Positions 1 through 64,000 of a DNA stretch of 64,000 bases are shown here, one piece after another. A program made the translations under genes and the position numbers. The stretch is from a virus (taxonomy: Duplodnaviria > Caudoviricetes). The notes below the pieces were generated by a model. The model saw only the letters and a list, made by a program, of their open reading frames with translations, was not told the origin of the DNA and did not search any database. Location: positions 1 to 64,000 of IMG/VR virus record IMGVR_UViG_3300037722_000745, one strand, 5' to 3'. How positions within the stretch are numbered: position 1 is the first letter of the stretch; each line of letters opens with the position of its first letter.

Positions 1-257
1 CTTGAGGGAGGTGAAAGCCTCCCTCGTAATTGAAACGTTGAGGACGCGACGTCTGAAGTCAAAACCGCGTTGACCTTGAGGGAGGTGAAAGCCTCCCTCG
101 TAATTGAAACGTGTTCAAAAACTCGGGCGATCCCTTGCGCGCGTAGACTTGAGGGAGGTGAAAGCCTCCCTCGTAATTGAAACGTGAGAGTGGTCCCAGG
201 ATGCCAATCTCTCTGCCGGGACTTGAGGGAGGTGAAAGCCTCCCTCGTAATTGAAAC
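1..257 (+). CRISPR. CRISPR array 1 (4 repeats, 3 spacers; may continue left of the window)
   Basis: Identical 36-nt repeat CTTGAGGGAGGTGAAAGCCTCCCTCGTAATTGAAAC at 1, 75, 148, 222; unique spacers of 38, 37, 38 nt; repeat has a GAGGGAGG/CCTCCCTC stem, GAAA loop and ATTGAAAC 3' handle. Confidence 0.97.
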
Positions 258-272
258 GAACAAACAAACGAC

Positions 273-713
273 CTACACGATGAGCCGAGTTCGCACCCAG
301 TCGGGTAAAGGATCACTCACCCGAAACCCGAATGCCAACCAGTAGGGAGGTTCGGTGGGTAATTGCAGAACTCGTCCTGCAATTACGATCTTCTGGAAGA
401 GGATCCCATACCCCACGATGATGGCGCTTGCGTTGGGCATAGTCTTGGCCCTATCGAAGATCGCTTCTGCCGTGGTGTTGAACACGTCCAGCACCCACTG
501 TTCTTGAGCAGGGGGTGCAAAAATATAGACCCTCTCTCGAGCATCCCCGAAGGTTAGAGCGAGTACAAGCACGGCTTCGAGCACTTCAGGGTTCAGTGCA
601 GAGTCAGAAAACCCTCGAGACTCCGGGAACTTGCTGTACAGCTCATCCTGCACAGCTGTTGGTTTCTTCCCCAGTAATGTGAAATGCTTGGTCTGAATGT
701 TGGACGAAGCCAT
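273..713 (-). CDS. hypothetical protein
   Basis: 146-aa ORF; GGTGTA element 10 nt upstream of the ATG. Confidence 0.7.
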   Translation of the reverse strand: MASSNIQTKHFTLLGKKPTAVQDELYSKFPESRGFSDSALNPEVLEAVLVLALTFGDARERVYIFAPPAQEQWVLDVFNTTAEAIFDRAKTMPNASAIIVGYGILFQKIVIAGRVLQLPTEPPYWLAFGFRVSDPLPDWVRTRLIV

Positions 714-9908: not shown

Positions 9909-10076
9909 ATGACCCTACACGAGCTACTGGAGGCGTTACACAAAGAGGGTGGTTTGGAACTACCTCTCGAACGAATCGAACGCCTCAAAGCCAAGTACCA
10001 TGACCTTGAGGGGCTGGCCGAGTGTGTGGACTCGCTAACCGCAAATCAGTCAAGCAACTCGAGTTCGTCTTCGTAG
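9909..10076 (+). CDS. small hypothetical protein
   Basis: Short co-oriented ORF after the NAD kinase gene. Confidence 0.4.
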   Translation: MTLHELLEALHKEGGLELPLERIERLKAKYHDLEGLAECVDSLTANQSSNSSSSS

Positions 10077-10411
10077 ACCTCTTCTCCGTACATCCCCCCT
10101 CCCCCGTCGTACCCATCGTCCAAATATCCAGGGTGGTAACCTTCGTGGACTTCACGATGGCAGTTAGCGCACAACAGTTCACACTTGTCCAACTCAGGCT
10201 TGGCTCTGGCCCATGAAGTTGCTTCCGAAATGGTGAAGTCCTTGGTCATGGGGTCAGTGTGATGGAAATCAAAAGCGGCCAGACACTTATCGTAGTCGCA
10301 GAGCCGGCACTTCCCTCCGAGGTATTCAACCGCCCTTTTCCGCAATTCCATACGCTTGCGGGCTGCCGAATTACGGCTATTCCAACGCTGAAGGTCACTC
10401 GGGGAACGCAT
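10046..10411 (-). CDS. HNH endonuclease
   Basis: LGGKCRLC..FDFHH.DP..KDF..ELDKCELLCANCHREVH. Confidence 0.88.
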   Translation of the reverse strand: MRSPSDLQRWNSRNSAARKRMELRKRAVEYLGGKCRLCDYDKCLAAFDFHHTDPMTKDFTISEATSWARAKPELDKCELLCANCHREVHEGYHPGYLDDGYDGGGGMYGEEVYEDELELLD

Positions 10412-10455
10412 TTACCCCAGTGGGCGTATTGAAAGATCCCGCACTATCGGTGTAG

Positions 10456-10707
10456 ATGAGTTTTACAGTGACCTTCCCACAAGCCCTACTCGCGTTCGGT
10501 TTGGACGAGTCTCTAGTGACGCTTTTGATGGAGCGATCGCTCCGTGATCCCATCATTCACGCCCATCTTACCCTTGCTGAAATTGGACAGCAGTCGGTGG
10601 TAGAAACGCTTGTCCAAGCGCTGGTATCCTCCAGCGAAAATCGGGATCGTCTCGTCAACGACCTGTGTGACGCGAAGGCCCGCCTGCCCTTTCGCGCTGC
10701 TAAGTGA
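10456..10707 (+). CDS. hypothetical protein
   Basis: 83-aa ORF preceded by GGTGTAG; stop lies 4 nt before the solitary CRISPR repeat. Confidence 0.55.
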   Translation: MSFTVTFPQALLAFGLDESLVTLLMERSLRDPIIHAHLTLAEIGQQSVVETLVQALVSSSENRDRLVNDLCDAKARLPFRAAK

Positions 10708-10711
10708 GCAT

Positions 10712-10747
10712 CCTGAGGGAGGTGAAAGCCTCCCTCGTAATTGAAAC
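10712..10747 (+). repeat. solitary CRISPR repeat unit
   Basis: CCTGAGGGAGGTGAAAGCCTCCCTCGTAATTGAAAC, 35/36 identical to the array repeat; no second repeat nearby; 9 nt before the rnhB ATG. Confidence 0.95.
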
Positions 10748-10756
10748 AAACGACCT

Positions 10757-11449
10757 ATGGCCTCCAGTAACCCCTCTATCCCGCCCGCCCTTGCACGGGA
10801 CCTCGCGACCGTTGATCATGTTTGCGGATCTGATGAGGTCGGTCTGGGATGCTGGGCAGGCTCTCTTGTGGTCTGCGCAGTTGTTGCCCACCGGTCCTGG
10901 GCGTTTCCCGGAGTCACCGACTCGAAGAAGCTCACCCCGGCAGCTCGAGAGCAGCTATACCCAAGACTGACCGCAGAAGAGTCTTTGTCCTACAACCTGG
11001 TGGAATTCTCGGCTCAAGAGATCGATGAGATGGGAGTTGGTGTAGCTTGGAAGAAGGCCCATAGCAACGCCATCCAGGGCGCCCTGGACCTCCACGAAAG
11101 CCGCGGGCACTCAGATACCCCTCTGGTCATCGTAGACGGCAACAGGGGACTTCTGGGCGCACTGGCGCTACCTAAAGCCGATTTGCTCATCCCTGCCGTC
11201 TCGGCCGCCTCCATCATCGCCAAGGTTTACCGTGACCGGCTGATGAAGAAACTGGACGCCGAATATCCCGGCTATGGGTTCTCTTCGCATGTGGGCTACG
11301 GGACGAAACAACATCAGAGGGCGCTTAGCCTCCGGGGTGTGTGTCCGATCCACCGGATGAGCTATGCACCGATGAAGTTCATGCGCAAGAAGACGGAAGA
11401 AGACCCCGGCCTCACTGCGTTGGGGACTGGGATCCATTGCGAGGACTGA
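10757..11449 (+). CDS. rnhB: ribonuclease HII
   Basis: GSDEVGLGCWAGSLVVCAV, DSKKLT, IVDGN, KADLLIPAVSAASIIAKVYRD, HVGYGT..H. Confidence 0.93.
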   Translation: MASSNPSIPPALARDLATVDHVCGSDEVGLGCWAGSLVVCAVVAHRSWAFPGVTDSKKLTPAAREQLYPRLTAEESLSYNLVEFSAQEIDEMGVGVAWKKAHSNAIQGALDLHESRGHSDTPLVIVDGNRGLLGALALPKADLLIPAVSAASIIAKVYRDRLMKKLDAEYPGYGFSSHVGYGTKQHQRALSLRGVCPIHRMSYAPMKFMRKKTEEDPGLTALGTGIHCED

Positions 11450-11509
11450 GTCTCGCCGCAGCGAGCAATGAGTGCGTGACTACACCAAGCCAACCCAATT
11501 CGGCTTCGG

Positions 11510-44717: not shown

Positions 44718-45593
44718 TTACCAGGGCCCCTTACGCTTCGGATGGTATTTGGAGCCCGATGACCCGGGCGGCAGCAGATCGTCGGAGTTTGATTGGGATG
44801 GCCTCGAAGTTGATTGGGATGACTTAGACTGGTCAAACAAATTGCTTTTCGGTGGGTCGACTCCCATCCCAATTGCATTGTCGTTATCCTCGACTTCCTC
44901 CTGTACCTCTCTGCGCAATCGGTTGACTCTCTCTCTAGCTTCCTCAACCCCCCCACCCAGATCGACTATGTCATAGTTCTCTTGGATGTAGCCCCAAGCA
45001 CCAGGAGTGTAGGCTTCATGCCCTGGGCCAAAGAACTCAACATCCTCCGCAATCCAGGTGGGTTTGCCTGCGCCCATTCGAATCGCCATCGTTTCATGAA
45101 GCACATCCCCAGCAGCTCTGTTCCGGTGGAGAACCCCGAGCCGTATGATGACTAAGCTCGGCGGTAGAAGAAGATCGTTGAGGTTGTTGTAAGTGGCGAT
45201 CGTCTCCCGGTTTTCCTTGGATCTCTTCGTGTAGGCAAAGTCCCCAAGCCATACCCGCACCAGCTCCTGGTCGTCCGTGGTCCGAAACGTGAAACCCTTG
45301 GAGTATTCCCACTTCACCGAAAGGACCCAACGCAAGTGCCGGCAAACCATCTCCCAGGTCCCCCTCAGGAACAGGTTCTCTTGGGTGGCATCCCGGTCTT
45401 CAGTGTAGAGAGGACTCCGAACGTGCTTCACGCCTGAAATGACGGGACCCAGAAATGCATGAAGCTGCTTGCGTTTGAGACAAATGCACGGAATCGGAAT
45501 CAGGTCCTCGCCGTCGGTCTCATAGCGCCAGTGTTTTCCTTTGCACTGTGGGCATATGGTCTCCTCAGGCACGATTGGTAGATACACCGGCAT
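44718..45593 (-). CDS. possible DnaC/DnaI-like helicase loader
   Basis: CPQC...CIC Zn motif then degenerate P-loop fold (LLLPPSLVIIRLG, KPTWI); next to DnaB. Confidence 0.5.
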   Translation of the reverse strand: MPVYLPIVPEETICPQCKGKHWRYETDGEDLIPIPCICLKRKQLHAFLGPVISGVKHVRSPLYTEDRDATQENLFLRGTWEMVCRHLRWVLSVKWEYSKGFTFRTTDDQELVRVWLGDFAYTKRSKENRETIATYNNLNDLLLPPSLVIIRLGVLHRNRAAGDVLHETMAIRMGAGKPTWIAEDVEFFGPGHEAYTPGAWGYIQENYDIVDLGGGVEEARERVNRLRREVQEEVEDNDNAIGMGVDPPKSNLFDQSKSSQSTSRPSQSNSDDLLPPGSSGSKYHPKRKGPW

Positions 45594-48429
45594 CCGAGTC
45601 TCGCAGACTCTTCATCAGCTCGTAGGAGAAGCTACCCTCACTCTCGAAATTCAAAGCTCCGACCGCAGCTTCCCCAAGCACTTTGTCGATCAGGTCTTTC
45701 TTGCTTTGAAGGATTTGGAGTGTGTAGTGATCGATCGTCTTTTTTGCTCGACCCGGACGCTCCGCTACTAGGTGGATCGCTACGACGTGTTGGTGAGGAG
45801 AGCCGATACGAATCGGTCGCCCGAGAAGCTGGACGTAGTTCCCCCACGACCAAGGAGCATTGTAGAAGATCATCGCCGCAGCGGCTTGTAGGTTGATCGA
45901 CTCCGAACCCGCATCTGAGATGAAGATGACCCGCACATCGGATTCAGGATCCTGAAACTCCAGCATGGCCCTCTGCCGAGCTGGATTGGTCTTGGTGTCG
46001 ACTACTTTGCCTGTGATCGCCGTGCTCTCCACCCCAGCTTTCTTGCACAACTCCTGAAGACGGGGGATGAGGGACGCGAATCGTGTGTACACAATCACCT
46101 TCTCCCCATCGAACTCCCCGGTGATCAGATCCAACATGGCTTCCTCTTTCGAGGACAAGGATTTCACGTTGTCCGCCTCACCCAACAACTCGAGCCCGAT
46201 AGTGTCCCCCTCTTCGAAGCGAAGTAAGCTCAGAGAATCAACCGTTTGTTGGCAGTAGATGAGCGCAGTCAGCGTTTTGGTCTCTTCGTAGTCCCGCACC
46301 TCTCCGTCCCCCAAAGCGAGCACGCCTGACAGTGCCTCCTCGTACTTCGTGTTCTCCGCTTTAGATAACGTGACCCGAACGTCGCGCGTGAGAAGCTTGG
46401 GAAGCTCGTCCGAAATCTCATGCTTCGGCCGTCCGAGGAAGAACGGATCAATGCGCATCCGGAACAGCTCCAGGTTCTTGTACCCGATGATGATCGGAAT
46501 TTTCCTTCGACCTCCTACAGGTTGCCACTTGACCTCGCAGAACAGGTCGAGGAACTTCGTCTTCGTCGTGAAGACTCTTGGGTAGATGCACTTGTAGATG
46601 GCGTAACCCTCGATCAAGTTGTTCTTGAGCAAGGTAGCTGTGAGCCCGTAACAACGATTTGCATGGCTGGCTAGCTCTGAACACACCTGCCACGTCTTTG
46701 TCGACGGGTTCTTGAACGCGGTGCAGTTAGAAACTAGGGCCCCTCCAGCTATGTAGTTATGGTTACCCTCGACCTCCAAGTCATAGACGTAGTCAAGATG
46801 CTCCCGCACCTTGGGGGCACGCTTCCATGGAGTTTTAGCCAGCACCACATCCCGTACCAAACCAACCGTAGGGTTACGATCCAAACTCTCCAACAGGAGT
46901 GGTTCTTTACCTGGAAACTTGTGCTCCACCCCAGGTAAAGAGCCAGGCAACAGCTCTAGGAACCTGTCGGCCGCCTCTGCGTCCAAGTACAACACCCAAT
47001 GACGACCTGACTTGCTAATCTGCGCCTGAACCCCCCACCGCCACCGAAGCCAACCCGCTAACAATTCGTTCTCGCCGTAGGTGAATCCTTGCGTGTTTAA
47101 AATAATACGACGGCGAACCACCCCTTCTTTGGTTGTGTGCGTCTGCAACGATCCGTCATCCCCATACCAGATCGCAAGACCTAACGGGCCAACGCGGCTC
47201 AACCATTCTACAGAGGGGTGCTTACGGCCTTCTCGATGCGTAGTCAGTGTTGAACACAAATGTGGGTTGGCTCGTAGCCTGAACCGGCAAATGGGAGAAC
47301 CCCCGTACCCGCTAGGGGTTGTGCTAATCTCAGAGGTGCCAAGCGAGGCTAACAAGCCCTTCTTGAAATCCAGGTATCTTCGCTGTGCTTGCCCATGTAC
47401 AAAAGACACCCCCCACAAACTACGCTTGGGGTGGGACACACTAGCATCCCCAAGCAAACCCCCCAGAATAATCTGGAGTTGATCATCAGAAGGTATTGTG
47501 TCCGTAAAGGTAGCTGTCTCGGAGCCCTTCCTAAGACGCCCTGCTTCCGTTGGTTTGCCGTCGCATCTGTAGAATTTATGATTTCTGGTTACGATCACGC
47601 TGTTGGCATACCGAAACTCAAGTTTCACCAACCCCTTCGTGCGCAATGGGTTACGGACCCAACGGATTACCCGGCGTGGTTCCATGGAGTTGGTCGCCCA
47701 GTTCCATGACAACACGGATACAGGTTCTCGCCCGCATACGATCTTGCCTATCAACCGCTCAGAGCCATCAGCTAAGCGTATTGGAGTGTGGTACTCGAAA
47801 CATTCGTCGTACACGACAGTGAGGCCGTCGATCTTCTGCATGAGGCCGTTCAACAACCCGGGGCTCATCGGCTTCTTCATGTCCGGCTGCCCGTTCTTCT
47901 TGAGCGGACGGGTGGCTCCCTGATTCCAGTCGCGGACCAAGGGAGCATACCCCATGACCATCACCGCTTTCGGGTCGTCCGGGCCCGTTGGATGATTCAA
48001 AAAAGCGTCGTAGGTTTCCCGACGCTCATCCGGACCTCCGTTTGCCAAGTAGACTTGAATACCTGTGGCGAACTTGTCGATCTCTGCCGCCCACTGACGC
48101 AGGGCGCTCTTGGGGGTGATCACGACCACTTTGTTCGTCGGTTCTTTCTGCCAGGTGTAGCAAAAAGCTGCAATGCAGGTGGGCGTCTTGCCCGTGCCAG
48201 TGGCGTCCCCGAGCACCATCCTCTTCATCGACATCAGATGGAAGACCGCCTGGACTTGATAGTACCGGAGCTTGAACGGCTGGACTTTGCCGTCGATGCC
48301 CACGATCTCAGATCGCAGCATCGAGATGGGCTTGAGCGCTACCGTCTTGCTCTCCCGGACCTTTTTGAGAAGCTCGTAGACCTTCCTGTGCTTCTCTACC
48401 GGATCTTCTTTAGGTGTTTTCGCGGCCAT
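45565..48429 (-). CDS. SNF2-family helicase with intein
   Basis: LGDATGTGKT, YDE|C, LTATLLKN, VIVYTRF, GSESINLQ, WSWGNYVQLLGR. Confidence 0.93.
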   Translation of the reverse strand: MAAKTPKEDPVEKHRKVYELLKKVRESKTVALKPISMLRSEIVGIDGKVQPFKLRYYQVQAVFHLMSMKRMVLGDATGTGKTPTCIAAFCYTWQKEPTNKVVVITPKSALRQWAAEIDKFATGIQVYLANGGPDERRETYDAFLNHPTGPDDPKAVMVMGYAPLVRDWNQGATRPLKKNGQPDMKKPMSPGLLNGLMQKIDGLTVVYDECFEYHTPIRLADGSERLIGKIVCGREPVSVLSWNWATNSMEPRRVIRWVRNPLRTKGLVKLEFRYANSVIVTRNHKFYRCDGKPTEAGRLRKGSETATFTDTIPSDDQLQIILGGLLGDASVSHPKRSLWGVSFVHGQAQRRYLDFKKGLLASLGTSEISTTPSGYGGSPICRFRLRANPHLCSTLTTHREGRKHPSVEWLSRVGPLGLAIWYGDDGSLQTHTTKEGVVRRRIILNTQGFTYGENELLAGWLRWRWGVQAQISKSGRHWVLYLDAEAADRFLELLPGSLPGVEHKFPGKEPLLLESLDRNPTVGLVRDVVLAKTPWKRAPKVREHLDYVYDLEVEGNHNYIAGGALVSNCTAFKNPSTKTWQVCSELASHANRCYGLTATLLKNNLIEGYAIYKCIYPRVFTTKTKFLDLFCEVKWQPVGGRRKIPIIIGYKNLELFRMRIDPFFLGRPKHEISDELPKLLTRDVRVTLSKAENTKYEEALSGVLALGDGEVRDYEETKTLTALIYCQQTVDSLSLLRFEEGDTIGLELLGEADNVKSLSSKEEAMLDLITGEFDGEKVIVYTRFASLIPRLQELCKKAGVESTAITGKVVDTKTNPARQRAMLEFQDPESDVRVIFISDAGSESINLQAAAAMIFYNAPWSWGNYVQLLGRPIRIGSPHQHVVAIHLVAERPGRAKKTIDHYTLQILQSKKDLIDKVLGEAAVGALNFESEGSFSYELMKSLRDSDAGVSTNRA
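46726..47802 (-). mobile_element. intein with LAGLIDADG homing endonuclease (359 aa)
   Basis: Starts CFEYHTPI after YDE; ends VYDLEVEGNHNYIAGGALVSN before Cys+1; internal GGLLGDAS and IWYGDDG. Confidence 0.93.
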
Positions 48430-49819: not shown

Positions 49820-49925
49820 TGTCGCGCTGTTTTTTGATTTGTCGGACATCCGCGATTCGACGCTGTAACCCTGCGGGCAGCAACCGGAAGCCCACCTCCC
49901 TTGAGTGGGACATAGGAGGAACGAA

Positions 49926-50963
49926 ATGACGAATCAATTGCTGGTCCGGTTGGCCCGCGCTTACCAAACTACAAACACGCCTATCCGCCTATCTTCAGAC
50001 GTCTACACGAATGAGTACCTCGACTGCCGGCAAGCCCTAAGCGACCCTCGGACCCTCCAACTTGCCTGTAGGGCCCTCCTGGAGGCGCTGAGAGACGAGG
50101 GTGTAGACATCGAAGCCCTTGGGGGCATGACGATGGGGGCCGACCCCCTGGCGGTCGGAGCTGCCCTTCTCGACCTCGAACGAGAGGCCCCCAACACTTG
50201 TTGTTGGTTCAGCGTGCGGAAGCTTCCCAAGGAACACGGGACGGGACGCAAGATCGAAGGGTTTGTTCGTCCTGGCTCTCGAGTTGCGGTTCTTGACGAC
50301 GTGATCACCACCGGAAGCTCCTTGACGAGTTCGATTCTCAACTGCCGTGACGCCGGCATGGAGGTTGTCCTAGCTCTGGGGCTTGTCAACCGCGGGGCGC
50401 TCGCTGAGGTCGCCGGGGTCAAAGTCGTGTCGATCCTGGACTTCTCCGACGTGGCGTTCGTGGGGCAGGCTCGCGAATTTGCCTTCAAGGCCCATGATGG
50501 ACAAATGTACGGATCGACTCCGTACAGCGAGCACCTGGAAGAGACGGTCCAGGTGCTCGTGACTACGCTGCCTGATTGCCCGCCCGAATTGCTCGCCGCC
50601 GCTTACCTACACGACGTGTTAGAAGACACCTTCTTGACGACAGACGATCTGCATGAAGCCACCTCGGGGCGTGTCGTCGGCCTTGTGGACGCCTGTACGG
50701 ATGGAAAGGGCCAGAACCGCCGAGAACGAAAAGAGAGGCCCTTCGAGCTGATTCCGAAACGGCCTGACTCCATCCTGGTGAAGCTCGCCGATCGCATCGC
50801 CAATGCCGAACGCTGCCGGGCCACCGGAGACAGTCGACTTAACATGTACCGAAAGGAGCATTCGGTATTCATCGCCCGACTCAACCATGCCCCAACCTCT
50901 CCTGGATTGAGTCCCAAGCCCCTGTGGGAGCGGTTGACAAATGCTCTGTCCAACTCAGGATAG
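49926..50963 (+). CDS. orotate phosphoribosyltransferase fused to RelA/SpoT-type HD hydrolase
   Basis: GMTMGADP, RKLPKEHGTGRKIEG, VLDDVITTGSS; then HDGQ..PYSEH, LHDVLEDT, KLADRIAN. Confidence 0.88.
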   Translation: MTNQLLVRLARAYQTTNTPIRLSSDVYTNEYLDCRQALSDPRTLQLACRALLEALRDEGVDIEALGGMTMGADPLAVGAALLDLEREAPNTCCWFSVRKLPKEHGTGRKIEGFVRPGSRVAVLDDVITTGSSLTSSILNCRDAGMEVVLALGLVNRGALAEVAGVKVVSILDFSDVAFVGQAREFAFKAHDGQMYGSTPYSEHLEETVQVLVTTLPDCPPELLAAAYLHDVLEDTFLTTDDLHEATSGRVVGLVDACTDGKGQNRRERKERPFELIPKRPDSILVKLADRIANAERCRATGDSRLNMYRKEHSVFIARLNHAPTSPGLSPKPLWERLTNALSNSG

Positions 50964-59700: not shown

Positions 59701-61062
59701 GTAATGGACGAAGGTCCCTTGGGGCCCACCGCCGGAGCGCTTCCAGTTGGCTCGCAGCTCACCCCTCAGCAGCTTGTCGACGTTGTTCTGAAGCAGCGCC
59801 GTGTAGTCCATCCCGTTAGGATTGACCGAGTGCCGTAAGTCGAGAATATCAGTGAGAGCGATCTGGTCTGAAAACAGCTCGTCGGGGCGCCCAGAAATGA
59901 CACGGATCTCAGACCCCGCCAAGTGAGCTTCCCCGATCGTTCCGTTGGTGCCTCGAGTCAGACCATTCAGCGTCGTACCGGTGATCGATGTGTAGGTCAG
60001 GATCTCGTCGCCGATTTGAATCGTCACCGCCGTCGCCGGGGAGGCGGGGAGCGGAATATTCGTGACTGAAGCAAGCGTCGCCGAAGTGGCCGTTGCGTTG
60101 AGATCCGCCGCAAGGGTTGGAACGGTAGAGAACGTCTTAACGCCTGTGCGATCGACTGCCGTCGGGTTGCGGTCGAACCCCCCATTCAAGTTCTGCGATG
60201 GGTTTCCATTCCAACCAATCGAGTTCCTACGGAACACCACCGCGATCGGAACGGCATAGCTATAGCCATCCACGGTCCCTAGCGAGGAACTAGTCCCATC
60301 ACCCGCACGCCACAACCCAGGGTCCCCCAGCTCCTCCCGCATGTTTTCAAACGTGAACGCAGTCACAGCCGAAGCCGCACCCTGCGCTTTGACAACCACA
60401 GGATCGAAGCCATCCGGGTATGTCGTCAGACCTACCAAGCCCTTGACCACACGGATGCGGTACTGGATTTGAACTCGCTGCTCTGTCTCAAACCCAAGAG
60501 CAGGATCGAGCAAATCATCTGGGAGAAAAGAGCTGCCAGACTCGACATTACCGTAGCGGTAGATGCCACTAGCAGACGGCTTGTTTGTAGTTGACGGGTT
60601 AGGCTGAATCCTGGCCTTCCACACCTCCAAAAAGACGAAGTCAATCCGGAAGTCCCCTGAATTGGAGGGAGGGGGATCAAGCGCAATGACGTTCGTCGTG
60701 TCGGTGTCATTAGGACTCCCGGGAGGAGTGCCCGTCCGTGTGCCTGTCACCGGGATCAACCACCCGTTGACGTTCGCCCACATGATAGATCGCTGCTCAC
60801 CGGCTCGCTGCGGACCGAACTTGAACCAGTTCGACCATGTGGAGTGGGTTTGGTAACTTGCCTGGGGGTTGGTCTCGTTACCCAAAAACCCAGAAGGTGT
60901 GCCGCGCAAAACCGCAGACTGCAAAGCTTCGTGAGCCAACTGCTGTTGCAGTATCAGAGCTGCGTCGGTTGGAGGCTTGCCCTGCTGCCAAATAGTGGTG
61001 ATGTACTGCGTGTCTGCCGATTGCAGGACACGGGACACTCCGGGACCTAGATTGTCGCTCAT
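56743..61062 (-). CDS. large virion structural protein (tail/baseplate-like), 1439 aa
   Basis: Gly/Thr/Ser-rich beta protein with IQIGDEILTYT..LTRGTNGT..AHLAG module common in tail proteins. Confidence 0.7.
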   Translation of the reverse strand: MSDNLGPGVSRVLQSADTQYITTIWQQGKPPTDAALILQQQLAHEALQSAVLRGTPSGFLGNETNPQASYQTHSTWSNWFKFGPQRAGEQRSIMWANVNGWLIPVTGTRTGTPPGSPNDTDTTNVIALDPPPSNSGDFRIDFVFLEVWKARIQPNPSTTNKPSASGIYRYGNVESGSSFLPDDLLDPALGFETEQRVQIQYRIRVVKGLVGLTTYPDGFDPVVVKAQGAASAVTAFTFENMREELGDPGLWRAGDGTSSSLGTVDGYSYAVPIAVVFRRNSIGWNGNPSQNLNGGFDRNPTAVDRTGVKTFSTVPTLAADLNATATSATLASVTNIPLPASPATAVTIQIGDEILTYTSITGTTLNGLTRGTNGTIGEAHLAGSEIRVISGRPDELFSDQIALTDILDLRHSVNPNGMDYTALLQNNVDKLLRGELRANWKRSGGGPQGTFVHYQDAIQSAAVSLGVTQLDAPDNIRTVFSDAATIQPIECVVRPNSGVVPPGPGVAINEPWSLSLTVNTTNQTVGNQFTAGDIIEIPVNQLKTGLQAGATDQIRWLNDSVTGAVQLRLAGETGDLPSTMYTVTPAVPGPADNLIITLSGSFPSQLTTTASPRQLHIRVHAVYGPGRGLARRPDSLHNITYLNPSSLLMVQERGIPDTNHVARVAWAPLWAKYRTAEFNGLLPSITEMYADLGSKTVIATPFRRIEFPNLLTVDGDAANPVPTPKLTSATGFTSSANTPVFEDASGVGTTVGGDALVIPSGPGAGRYTILSVGATSYTLDRPVRAQATVGISYTTHSAQGVMPLNAVDGVTPKWTQTDPLGLFCSQSAGDPAFNNIYVSLPRHLVPGWGELNVPMIAEDGDFASGINYMIRSTPGAVVENQFNYIAYSNTSFRYSVFSQIDFASNPLSFNTAGVISGNQTAGMRFFTDSRGLGREGLELPPFYGAARLFGVYEAQDYISSSTPFTDERGPGGGGTATNLLRQAMRSGDGPPMWIEIDSDGDSTFILNANAIDITRSPNPIADFASGTYVVEAAVFGFDRGTFDLNSEARLILTRPGNVNAWDDVGSGGDPGAAGSREDNINKRVTGPSALLPGPATASDQILVNYSRTPYQGDAWGSQNSYIDLPYVPGPLMSDDAFDVVSTELDADNLTRPNEKALEVLASLSFATSLGTGRYSGDASDADLVFTNVAYEDPSVYPPSSGVDPRPKALPTNFAGDGPDIGTEYLGCTERLPLGALFRDKDFRGQHFGYTDVMAPLVYRNTVGSGQSTGLASPALEHHEVRLSTATSGVGSPGDVLVHVDGEANNFALDTNFRTHRGGSVFVASGPRPGGSVSLNNSVATATTDHVRTLQGRAMLVRNSVTNVGSNEASAGSELMMLILTSVYDAPIGSSAPTPIRIGTNGTGEGYAAADLYRIEGHPLVRNNTRMLIDSSAIPLTRKA

Positions 61063-61333
61063 CCCTGTTACCTTCTGATCCGATTTGCAAGCCCACTAGA
61101 CAGGCTGTCAAATGGGCCGGCTTATAGGGAGTTTCTCGGTTTTCGAGAGGCCCGGTGGTGTGTTACCCTCGGGAGTCTCTCGCATTCTGCGGGTTCTCTG
61201 AGAATTCAATAGGTTAGAAAGATCCGGATCCCGATCGGCCTCTGGATCCAAGGGGTCCCAACCCATGATCCCACAGGGGGGTCTCGCAAACCGCCTTGTG
61301 AACCTCCGAATTCACACGGTTTCTCAGAATCCC
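61063..61333 (+). promoter_or_regulatory. CRISPR leader, divergent from the structural gene
   Basis: About 270-nt non-coding region ending GGGGGGTCTCGCAAAC...CAGAATCCC before the first repeat; the variant repeat lies at the far end. Confidence 0.6.
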
Positions 61334-61884
61334 CTTGAGGGAGGTGAAAGCCTCCCTCGTAATTGAAACAAGACGGCGAAGGGCAACGCAACCTCGGAAC
61401 CTACGGGCTTGAGGGAGGTGAAAGCCTCCCTCGTAATTGAAACTGCTCGCTGAGTGATCGATCGAGATTGGTGGTGAAGCTTGAGGGAGGTGAAAGCCTC
61501 CCTCGTAATTGAAACCTGGAGCTGGGTAGCCGCTGCCTCCGCTGCCATGGCCCTGCTTGAGGGAGGTGAAAGCCTCCCTCGTAATTGAAACCAGGAAGCC
61601 CAGGCCGTCTACGCGTCGCAGAGCGACCCTTGAGGGAGGTGAAAGCCTCCCTCGTAATTGAAACCAGACAACTGAGTTCCTACGGAACACCACCGCGATC
61701 GGGCTTGAGGGAGGTGAAAGCCTCCCTCGTAATTGAAACGACGGGCGACGTCGTCGCTGGCCTGCCGGGATTCGGCTTGAGGGAGGTGAAAGCCTCCCTC
61801 GTAATTGAAACCAGGCGGCTGCGCTCCTTGACGGCGGCGACGAATCCGCTTGAGGTAGGCGGATGCCTACCTCGTAATTGAAAA
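61334..61884 (+). CRISPR. CRISPR array 2 (8 repeats, 7 spacers)
   Basis: Same repeat at 61334, 61408, 61480, 61556, 61629, 61704, 61776 and variant at 61849; spacers of 38, 36, 40, 37, 39, 36, 37 nt. Confidence 0.98.
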
Positions 61885-61938: not shown

Positions 61939-64000
61939 ATGACCAGATCCATTTTCGTTTTCTCTCTGATTCTAACCGCCTGTAGTACCGGGGGCCCTAT
62001 CGAACTACCCTCCTCCAAGGAAGGGTTCTCAGATGGAGGGGCTAGTTTCGTTGGCTCTGAACTTAGCGATGACGGGGGTAATAACCCAACGATCTCCGAC
62101 TCCAGCGTCACAGCCGACGGATCGTCTACAGCAGCCGACGGATCGTCTACAGACGCACACAAGCCAGAAGAAGCGGACGGGGGGGCCCCACCAGTCGATG
62201 CTGGGTCTCCCGCCGATGCGGACGCGGAGACAGACACCGAAGACGGAGGGGACTCCGATCTTCGTACTCCTGATGGGGGCGAAACAGAAACGGACGCGAC
62301 TCCCGACGACGATTGCCCAGGCTCTGGCCCGGGAGTAAAGTGTGAAGGTCGGGACAGATTCGCGTGCGTCTCCGGACAGTGGGTCATACAAGAGACTTGT
62401 GACCACACGTGTCAAGCAGGGGCTTGTGTAGGGGAGTGTGACCCGGGAAGCACGGACTGTTTGAACGAGCACCCGCGGACTTGTAACTCCAACGGGCTAT
62501 GGGACGTGGGTTTGGCTTGCTCGTTTGTATGCTCGGAAGGTTCCTGCGTAGGCGAGTGTGACCCCGGGGCCACCGACTGCCAAGGCGATGTGCCTCGAAC
62601 CTGCAACTCGCAAGGGCAGTGGGTAGAGAGTTCGGCCTGCGCGTTTGTATGCTCCGACGGAGCCTGCGTGGGGGTGTGTGAACCAGGCGATCGAAATTGC
62701 TCGGGAGACACTCCTCGTCAGTGCGATGCTTCGGGCCAGTGGGTCAACGAAGCCGCTTGTCCCTTCGTTTGCAGTGAAGGTGTGTGCTCCGGTGCATGCG
62801 ACCCAGGAGCAACAAGCTGCGCAGGGGACACCCCCCGTACGTGCAATGATTCCGGTGTGTGGGTCAACGGAACGACGTGTCCTTTCACATGCTCGGGAGG
62901 TTCGTGTACCGGGGTGTGTGAGCCTGGCGACCGTGATTGCTCGGGCCTGACACCCCGAAGCTGCAATGCCGCGGGGCAGTGGGTCAACGAGACCGCTTGT
63001 CCCTTCGTTTGTTCGGGAGAGGGCGTCTGTATCGGAAGCTGCACTCCGAACGACACTGATTGCCAGGGAGATGTCCCCCGGACTTGCAATTCGCAGGGTC
63101 AATGGGTGAGCGGTTCTGCCTGCCAGTTCGTGTGCTCTGACGGTGCCTGTACCGGCGTGTGCGAACCTGGCGATGTCCAGTGCTCGGGGAGCCAGATTCA
63201 AACCTGCAACTCGCAGGGCCAATGGGGCACTGCGGCCAACTGCCCAAGCGTGGCCGGTGCCAATGCTTACTGCCTGAACGACGCCTGCACCTTCGACTGC
63301 CAGCTCGACTACGACGATTGCGACGGCAACCCTGCCAACGGCTGCGAAGCCCACCTGGAGACCGACAGCAACAACTGCGGGAGCTGCGGACACTCTTGCT
63401 GCGGGGGTGCTTGTGGCAGCGGGACATGCGAGGTCTACGATTCCGGACTCCGCACCGTTTCCACCTGGGAGGTAGACTCCAACAGCATTTATACGACCGC
63501 CGTTAACGGTCAGACGGTGACCATCCAGCAGACACCACGTGAAGGGGGCGCCACATCGGCGATGGCCTCAATCACTGGCGACACAACATCCCCCCGGGTC
63601 ACCGATTTGGCCTCAAACGGAACCAACCTGTTTTGGAGCCTTCGAGAAGGGGGGGTGTTGTCGGTGCCGCTCGACGGTTCTGGACAGTACGAGTCCTGGT
63701 ACATAAACACCATCGACACATTCACCGTCAGTTCCAATCACGGGGCGTACACGTGGTACAACCTCTCAGCCACCGGAGAGCTATTGTTGGATGCTACTCG
63801 GGTTTACTGGTTCGGGACCAGCTCCGGTTTCGTCAACTGGAAGTGGCTGGTGACCCCCACACAGACCGGCGGGTCATTCGTGCTACCTGACGCTCCGACC
63901 CATCTAGTCTCAGATGGGGATTATATCTACGCGACGCCCCATACGGCACTGAATCCAATCAGCCGTCACAACCTTGCGTTCGACAACAACGAGAGCTTCG
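61939..64000 (+). CDS. myxobacterial-type Cys-rich repeat lipoprotein (runs off the window)
   Basis: MTRSIFVFSLILTAC lipobox; acidic DAG-rich linker; 40-aa six-Cys repeats; DCDGNPANGCE..NNCGSCG motif; open to 64000, so missing from the ORF track. Confidence 0.85.
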   Translation, partial: MTRSIFVFSLILTACSTGGPIELPSSKEGFSDGGASFVGSELSDDGGNNPTISDSSVTADGSSTAADGSSTDAHKPEEADGGAPPVDAGSPADADAETDTEDGGDSDLRTPDGGETETDATPDDDCPGSGPGVKCEGRDRFACVSGQWVIQETCDHTCQAGACVGECDPGSTDCLNEHPRTCNSNGLWDVGLACSFVCSEGSCVGECDPGATDCQGDVPRTCNSQGQWVESSACAFVCSDGACVGVCEPGDRNCSGDTPRQCDASGQWVNEAACPFVCSEGVCSGACDPGATSCAGDTPRTCNDSGVWVNGTTCPFTCSGGSCTGVCEPGDRDCSGLTPRSCNAAGQWVNETACPFVCSGEGVCIGSCTPNDTDCQGDVPRTCNSQGQWVSGSACQFVCSDGACTGVCEPGDVQCSGSQIQTCNSQGQWGTAANCPSVAGANAYCLNDACTFDCQLDYDDCDGNPANGCEAHLETDSNNCGSCGHSCCGGACGSGTCEVYDSGLRTVSTWEVDSNSIYTTAVNGQTVTIQQTPREGGATSAMASITGDTTSPRVTDLASNGTNLFWSLREGGVLSVPLDGSGQYESWYINTIDTFTVSSNHGAYTWYNLSATGELLLDATRVYWFGTSSGFVNWKWLVTPTQTGGSFVLPDAPTHLVSDGDYIYATPHTALNPISRHNLAFDNNESF
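62437..63243 (+). repeat. tandem ~120-nt coding repeats
   Basis: Six full and one partial copy of C[DE]PGxxxCxGxxPRxCxxxGQWVxxxxCxFxCSxGxCxG. Confidence 0.85.

Follow-up and report, generated by a model that had tools for sequence, protein, structure and literature searches.

The DNA analysed here, referred to below as the window, is a stretch of 64,000 nucleotides at the very start of an IMG/VR virus record of 323,174 bp, the completeness of which was estimated at 68%. The window codes for a phage replication module with DNA polymerase, helicases, clamp-loader-like ATPases and topoisomerase. Three families of CRISPR repeats are present in the record, designated F1, F2 (the CasΦ family) and F3, and a complete 36-nt copy of the F1 repeat stands alone, in sense orientation, in the leader of rnhB, the gene of RNase HII. 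The features used in this work are as follows:

1-275, plus strand: 3' end and trailer of F1 array 1 (array 1-257), with repeats at 1, 75, 148 and 222
10046-10351, minus strand: gene of an HNH homing-type endonuclease (phrog_2255, E 5e-26; weak PF01844 match)
10449-10455, plus strand: the GGTGTAG motif nearest upstream of the solitary repeat, abutting ATG 10456, with an in-frame GTG 12 nt downstream
10456-10707, plus strand: 83-aa open reading frame, probably coding as judged by codon score, with its stop 4 nt before the repeat
10712-10747, plus strand: solitary F1 CRISPR repeat, 36/36 identical to other arrays of the record, with a computed hairpin
10757-11449, plus strand: rnhB, RNase HII, 230 aa (PF01351, E 2e-30)
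11450-11469, minus strand: solitary F2 3' handle of 20 nt, directly adjoining the stop codon of rnhB
11470-11494, minus strand: conserved module with GGTGTAG upstream of the F2 handle, with a 24-nt match elsewhere in the record
61134-61884, plus strand: F1 array 2 (from 61334), preceded by a leader of about 200 nt and made up of 8 repeats, of which the terminal one is degenerate

The repeat in the gap before rnhB

The gap between the 83-aa ORF and rnhB, two codirectional genes, measures 49 nt. From the TGA stop ending at 10707 it reads GCAT (4 nt), the repeat and AAACGACCT (9 nt), which is followed by ATG 10757. An earlier note on this DNA had described the element as a hairpin-forming repeat with 35 of 36 positions matching, lying 4 nt past the stop and 9 nt before the rnhB ATG, solitary and oriented as the arrays are; all of this was confirmed for 10712-10747 on the plus strand. 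The copy agrees at 35/36 positions with the 11 non-degenerate repeats of the two arrays in the window, the sole mismatch being C for T at repeat position 2, and at 36/36 with those of two further arrays, located in the record at 65190-65383 and 120396-121201. Shuffling of the window gave an expectation of 0 repeat matches with up to 3 mismatches allowed. No second partial repeat was detected within 120 nt on either side (best local alignment 11; null 95th percentile 13). Being a single full-length match, intergenic, with no other repeat within about 100 bp and no adjoining cas gene, the element is a solitary repeat unit (SRU) as defined for SRUFinder, and it shares these traits with the SRUs of viruses and plasmids and with the Racrs derived from them (Camara-Wilpert 2023, PMC10651486; Faure 2019 as cited there).

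The solitary repeat is not an assembly artefact. Together with its flanks it recurs in independent assemblies from other samples (contigs L006 and L008), and contigs L007 and L009 break within the repeat. The contigs of four DNA runs also break at the repeat at this locus, and neither a repeat-less nor an expanded variant was seen among them. Over 12.7 kb every copy of the locus has the same sequence (100% identity); the copies represent one strain, so their conservation is uninformative.

The start of rnhB is firm, since its frame is closed upstream by a stop within the repeat (10742-10744) and, from there to the catalytic DE motif, offers ATG 10757 and no other ATG, GTG or TTG. The frame upstream of the repeat has a codon score of 9.5, which corresponds to the 19th percentile of real-gene windows and to the top 3.7% of open shadow frames. 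No homologue of its product was found among 5.8 billion proteins, comparison with known families gave no match apart from weak HEAT-repeat-like hits, and its fold was predicted with low confidence, Atlas and PDB searches yielding nothing usable. A peptide-word search of IMG/VR also returned no relative of either RnhB or the product of the 83-aa ORF.

The repeat is composed of a 3-nt 5' overhang, an 8-bp stem (10715-10722/10729-10736), a 6-nt loop and an 11-nt tail (10737-10747, GTAATTGAAAC), which ends with ATTGAAAC. In a 445-nt context the hairpin has a pair probability of at least 0.99, and the start region of rnhB is more open than average (0.59 unpaired vs 0.37). A search of Rfam with the repeat, CRISPR-DR families included, gave no family match, and scanning of the 49-nt gap disclosed no terminator-like, promoter-like or sigma-70-like site. 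The 9-nt spacer is without a Shine-Dalgarno sequence, as the earlier note had stated. The 5' arm of the repeat does contain GGAGGTGA, which was rejected as the ribosome site of rnhB because it is located 34 nt from the ATG and is base-paired in the stem. An intrinsic terminator at the repeat was rejected as well, on account of the absent U-tract.

The same features bear on a hairpin that would act independently of any Cas protein, either by protecting the 3' end of the upstream cistron or by pausing transcription. Its GC-rich 8-bp stem, very stable in context, would suit such a role. The lack of a U-tract and the empty terminator scan at the repeat, however, argue against it, and the presence of the full 36-nt repeat with an unpaired 11-nt tail would be left unexplained; we regard this account as very improbable.

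Repeat families of the record and the origin of the solitary copy

The record encodes CasΦ (Cas12j), a protein of 718 aa at positions 218308-220464 that matches CasΦ-2 (PDB 7LYS) with E 2e-159, and its gene adjoins an array of the F2 family. An F3 array is situated at 243.8 kb. At least five arrays belong to the F1 family. Their repeats flank 34 intervals within the record, and four or more additional spacers lie beyond its start, where array 1 is cut by the contig end and continues upstream in contig L023 with at least four further repeats. Arrays 2-4 of this family (61.3, 64.6 and 120.2 kb) possess leaders of about 200 nt that are 90-93% alike, and the DNA upstream of 10712 shows no similarity to them. 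One array spacer, a single case, matches the phage's own 1439-aa gene at 34/38 positions (protospacer 60212-60249). Solitary copies of the three families number at least 20 in the record and are nearly all intergenic. An F1 leader with a single repeat is present at 223772, and a degenerate F1 pair at about 286 kb.

Several of these repeats have changed in sequence and kept their stems. The terminal repeat at 61849 carries a compensatory stem change (GAGGTAGG with CCTACCTC), and in solitary F3 copies CCCAC/GTGGG is replaced by CTCAC/GTGAG or CTCGC/GCGAG with the stem retained. Stems kept by way of compensatory changes argue for selection on RNA structure.

The 10 bases after the solitary repeat, AAACGACCTA, are also found in the trailer of array 1 (bases 266-275), where 8 nt separate them from the last repeat; a flank match of this kind is expected by chance with a probability of about 0.004. 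As judged from this shared flank, the solitary repeat with its flank and the end of array 1 are probably copies of one another, made in one direction or the other. A prophage or other mobile element bounded by the repeats was considered and rejected, as the 10.4 kb between array 1 and the solitary repeat are syntenic with relatives (DNMK, RlaP) and contain no integrase. A common cassette around different solitary repeats was rejected too, the match being limited to the repeats themselves.

The repeat could be a neutral by-product: together with about 10 nt of flank it would have been copied by recombination from the end of an array, or would itself have seeded an array, it would persist for being harmless, and any cutting of it would be incidental and unselected. 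Such an origin is supported by the AAACGACCTA flank common to the end of array 1, by the absence of the repeat from all relatives (described below) and by the repeats and leader fragments with which the record is strewn, those at 223772 and about 286 kb among them. HNH homing-endonuclease genes near two of the solitary F1 copies, 360 nt upstream of 10712 and 43 nt from 223772, point the same way, both marking recombination-prone spots. On the other hand, the copy at 10712 is perfect (36/36), whereas the terminal repeats of F1 arrays have decayed by 6-8 mismatches; the site of a start-associated motif has been displaced and the conserved replication gene behind it retained; and among the solitary copies of F2 and F3 there are compensatory changes in the stem and a promoter-like module common to several, which indicates that solitary repeats in this phage are not generally junk. 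Altogether, a neutral by-product seems to us a possible, somewhat doubtful explanation.

Relatives of the locus, the start-associated motif and the second handle

Homologues of RnhB are 55-64% identical, and several of them are encoded on contigs of roughly 290-450 kb. We read four relative loci in full (L010, L011, L013 and L015; RnhB 57-60% identical). A linkage of the repeat to rnhB in related phages, which the earlier note had proposed as a check, did not emerge, for the repeat is absent before rnhB in all four (0/4). Since relatives at 57-60% RnhB identity are without it, the repeat is a recent gain. The block RlaP ... rnhB-dam-topoisomerase is kept in each of the four loci; rnhB belongs to a replication block that is conserved in repeat-less relatives as well, and the special link between this gene and CRISPR suggested before finds no support. 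Between rnhB and dam there are 409 non-coding bases here; in the relatives the two genes are close, with a small ORF between them in two cases.

Three of the four relatives (L011, L013 and L015), with gaps of 16-46 nt before rnhB, carry a TGGTGTAR motif (TGGTGTAA or TGGTGTAG) at a distance of 8-9 nt from the start codon of rnhB. In the phage studied here, the 3' end of the repeat occupies the place where the motif ends in these relatives, and rnhB has neither the motif nor a Shine-Dalgarno sequence.

In the record the core of this motif, GGTGTAG, occurs in 48 intergenic copies vs about 6 expected, and its spacing to the start codon shows a sharp peak at 8-10 nt. The first genes of strings are favoured (a divergent upstream neighbour for 39% of motif-bearing starts vs 20% of all genes), and the motif precedes cas12j as well. 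Its position 10 nt before three non-coding F2 handles favours a promoter over a ribosome site, and we infer from these sequence patterns that GGTGTAG may be a promoter giving near-leaderless RNAs. The copy nearest to the solitary repeat (10449-10455) ends 256 nt upstream of it; for Racrs, the promoter criterion is a distance within 250 bp. By crude gene calling, about one third of the genes likewise have neither of the two signals, motif or Shine-Dalgarno sequence, and rnhB may therefore get by without any particular device.

A second solitary element is found at the opposite end of rnhB. The 24-nt module upstream of the F2 handle recurs at the solitary copies at record positions 242052 and 243439. 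In consequence of their orientation the two handles face inward and bracket rnhB, F1 at 9 nt before the ATG and F2 at 0 nt after the stop, and a second convergent F1/F2 pair (223772 and 224976) brackets an HNH gene.

This arrangement allows the gene itself to be viewed as a source of guides. The F1 handle with the first 35 nt or so of rnhB would form a crRNA-like RNA, and the antisense CasΦ handle would do likewise from the stop end. The phage's own DNA would be spared because the repeat stands at the PAM position, and repeat-less co-infecting relatives would be cut (exclusion) or repaired from this genome (homing-like spread). Besides the two bracketed genes, such guides are consistent with the F2 solitary copies, which retain only the part of the mature handle and in three cases have the promoter-like module 10 nt upstream, with the CasΦ encoded in the record and with the 34/38 spacer match to the phage's own 1439-aa gene, a pattern expected for targeting of close relatives. 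However, no near-identical rnhB without the repeat was encountered, the search giving either 100% identical copies or proteins of at most 64% identity; type I crRNAs normally need a downstream repeat for their 3' end; and any intergenic element faces a gene, so inward orientation is weak evidence. Guides made from rnhB are in our opinion quite unlikely. A similarly low probability is assigned to the more general idea that handles stand at the edges of genes in order to turn these genes of the phage into spacers, and that the elements would spread in a homing-like manner by means of a trans-acting CRISPR nuclease.

A candidate processing site in the rnhB leader

A six-frame search of the 323-kb record (68% complete) revealed no Cas6, RAMP, Cas1, Cas5d, Cas7 or Csd1. 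Searches of the record with the Cas6/RAMP profiles PF10040, PF01881 and PF03787 gave no match, PF05107 and PF09709 gave none either, and PF09704 produced only a sub-threshold match (E 0.037) inside an 1841-aa protein. PADLOC applied to 10 neighbours of arrays and solitary repeats reported no Cas protein, only HNH nuclease. The repeat pattern, used strictly and then loosened to 18 nt, gave just 5 single chance hits in 185,579 species genomes; it was absent from other viral contigs of IMG/VR, and no copy was found in JGI metagenome contigs. Scanning with the leader-proximal spacer of array 1, aimed at reaching the DNA upstream of the array, returned nothing. With no cognate cas gene in the 323 kb, the processing enzyme is hypothetical here. 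The involvement of host machinery, assumed in the earlier note, finds no support in these genomes and contigs.

In type I-C systems Cas5c cuts at the stem's 3' base and leaves an 11-nt handle (PMC8524198), and for phages with CasΦ a type I-C variant has been reported that comprises a Cas5d-like protein but lacks Cas6 (PMC7162821). The F1 repeat resembles type I-C repeats in architecture only, by its short 5' overhang, stem-loop (10715-10736) and 11-nt 3' tail ending with ATTGAAAC, and the CasΦ phage background is shared as well. It differs from them in length (36 nt vs 32), in its 8-bp stem and 6-nt loop (vs 7 bp and 5 nt) and in the first three bases of the tail, which are GUA; moreover, the 323 kb yielded neither Cas5c nor Cas7 nor Cas8c. 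The canonical type I-C tail is UGGAUUGAAAC.

Since the stem base lies 11 nt from the end of the repeat and the layout is that of type I-C, a cut is predicted at about 10736/10737, which would leave a leader of 20 nt, and such cleavage by a Cas5c-type enzyme is in our view no less probable than cleavage by Cas6. The latter had been proposed in the earlier note at 8 nt from the repeat end, and a Cas6-type enzyme would indeed cut at 10739/10740 and leave a 17-nt leader; in the form given there, this version lacks support, in view of the position of the stem base and the failure to find any Cas6 in the record. The ATTGAAAC tag is compatible with Cas6. The likely partner is a Cas5c of the I-C type, possibly phage-encoded, rather than a host Cas6, and its gene may be located in the missing third of the genome. 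Whichever enzyme matures the F1 family should bind and cut the solitary repeat too.

The products of such a cut recall known anti-CRISPR RNAs. Solitary repeat units of phages act as Racrs, the inhibitory product of RacrIF1 is the RNA upstream of the cut, and RacrIC1 is placed downstream of acrIC5 on one bicistronic RNA (PMC10651486). By analogy, the upstream RNA with its hairpin could sequester the nuclease and Cas7 of a type I system belonging to the host or to a competitor, with the 83-aa ORF perhaps encoding an Acr partner. A homologue-less ORF that ends 4 nt before an I-C-like solitary repeat agrees with RacrIC1, a type I-C case which shares its transcript with a small protein gene. Unlike the known SRUs and Racrs, however, the present repeat belongs to a phage that has at least five arrays of its own with 34 repeat-flanked intervals and conserved leaders, and a decoy would blunt the phage's own crRNAs. 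It also has no dedicated promoter adjoining it and no known counterpart in a host, an array with the F1 repeat having been found neither in the species genomes nor in the IMG/VR and JGI contigs searched. Furthermore, it precedes a housekeeping replication gene by only 9 nt, the 83-aa ORF matches no known family, and inhibition is only putative here. The decoy put forward in the earlier note is possible in view of the RacrIC1 precedent and fits poorly to a phage so rich in arrays of the same repeat; we consider it unlikely.

The solitary repeat is an intact, functional-looking copy of the phage's own class 1 (type I-C-like) repeat. Our preferred reading, which we hold tentatively and with a probability of about 40%, is that it may serve as a site for a Cas endoribonuclease which sets the 5' end of the rnhB mRNA in place of the lost motif. 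Transcription would reach the repeat in the rnhB leader by read-through, the promoter-like motif closest on the upstream side being that at 10449. The nuclease maturing F1 repeats, Cas5c-like if the I-C analogy holds and otherwise Cas6, would attach to the hairpin and cleave the RNA either at the foot of the stem or slightly 3' of it (about 10736/10737 or 10739/10740). Two products would arise, an upstream RNA ending in the hairpin and an rnhB mRNA beginning with a crRNA handle 17-20 nt before the AUG. In this way the cut would supply a start-proximal 5' end, as the TGGTGTAR motif presumably does in the relatives, and the fate of the rnhB mRNA would be tied to CRISPR RNA processing. The argument is that in three of four relatives the motif is present where the repeat sits here, and that rnhB is devoid of the motif and of a Shine-Dalgarno sequence, so a cut probably supplies the 5' end. 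Loading of the cut RNA into an effector complex would repress rnhB instead of allowing its expression. From the interpretation offered in the earlier note, a genuine solitary repeat that is an expected substrate for processing remains; what was said there about the nuclease, the place of the cut and whose machinery is involved is mistaken or unsupported.

Such a site would have engineered parallels. Recognition sites of Cas nucleases used as insulators (Csy4/Cas6f and Cas12a; PMC9943656 for Cas12a in yeast) also place a repeat hairpin within an mRNA, where the CRISPR endoribonuclease parts the cistrons and defines the 5' end of the second message; those sites are synthetic, whereas the present one is found in a natural phage and its cleavage is predicted. 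CreA of CreTA and the crlRNAs (bioRxiv 10.1101/2024.12.27.630466) likewise join a repeat-derived handle to native sequence, and the rnhB RNA could, as they do, load into an effector. There, Cascade is guided to a promoter by partial complementarity; here, the handle precedes the gene's own start.

Solitary repeats of phages have so far been understood as decoys against host immunity. The case presented here is unusual in that a core replication gene of a CasΦ phage with many arrays has a perfect repeat in its leader and a second, different repeat handle at its end. If the handles make guides from the phage's own genes, they would constitute a new route by which phages exclude or convert close relatives. 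Should the repeat be cut, natural CRISPR RNA processing would build or control an ordinary mRNA, a use so far known only from synthetic biology.

CasΦ locus and type I-C-like arrays

Coordinates marked "record" refer to the whole 323-kb phage record. The record carries a gene of the CasΦ family together with its own repeat array:
record 217705-220464, CasΦ/Cas12j gene (718 aa, E 2e-159 to PDB 7LYS) with an adjoining array of 7 repeats (L016).

Searches for Cas1, Cas2 and Cas4 gave no match anywhere in the record. In array 2, which belongs to F1, the type I-C-like repeat family, one spacer (window 61665-61702) matches the phage's own gene for a 1439-aa protein (window 60209-60249) at 34 of 38 positions, with the mismatches near the 5' end, a pattern that a spacer targeting the allele of a close relative would be expected to show. 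Array 3 of the same family (record 64708-65116, L020) contains two duplicated spacers (64708 is identical to 64856, and 64779 to 65076), and its loop variant changes midway from TACCCG to TGAAAG; the two features together suggest recombination between arrays. A predicted lipoprotein gene lies between arrays 2 and 3 (window 61939-64000 and beyond) and contains 120-nt tandem repeats (62499-63254).

Other solitary and partial repeats

Besides the solitary F1 repeat ahead of rnhB, further F1 copies were found outside the arrays (loci L017-L019):
record 223772-223807, solitary copy; of the array leader, the stretch of about 200 nt that precedes F1 arrays, only the final 25 nt are present
record 285970-286166, inverted pair around a leader fragment, with the reverse complement of the loop standing in place of the loop in one member
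record 322376-322411, solitary copy with a degenerate 5' end

Two of the F1 solitary repeats are flanked by HNH endonuclease genes (window 10046-10351 (-) and record 223851-224363 (-)), whose proteins show no similarity to each other. A partial copy of F3, the third repeat family of the record, comprising the 5' half (16/18), is located at window 49882-49899 (+), in a gap 26 nt ahead of the gene at 49926-50963. At the record end, a 52-nt unit occurs in exact tandem copies (record 322996-323174, L019) that continue off the contig end; it could be a further array-like repeat or a genome-end repeat. A 954-aa helicase (window 45565-48429 (-)) contains a LAGLIDADG homing-endonuclease-like segment mid-protein (residues 314-506), possibly an intein.

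GGTGTAG motif and the handle at the rnhB end

On the opposite strand, the last 20 nt (3') of a CasΦ-family repeat, its handle, touch the rnhB stop codon. Ahead of the handle lies a 24-nt module that includes GGTGTAG and also accompanies the solitary copies at record 242052 and 243439. The whole (window 11450-11494 (-)) looks like a promoter-plus-handle unit directed antisense into rnhB.

Across the whole record, GGTGTAG or GGTGTAA was counted 48 times in intergenic regions, where about 6 copies would be expected. Most of the copies stand 8-10 nt upstream of start codons (in the window, for example, at 723(-), 848(+), 3186(-), 10449(+), 11740(+), 19451(-), 36537(-) and 48443(-)/48503(+)). The motif is often found in divergent pairs that separate divergent genes, and cas12j is also preceded by one copy. 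The motif is probably a phage promoter giving rise to near-leaderless mRNAs, or else a ribosome site of an unusual kind.
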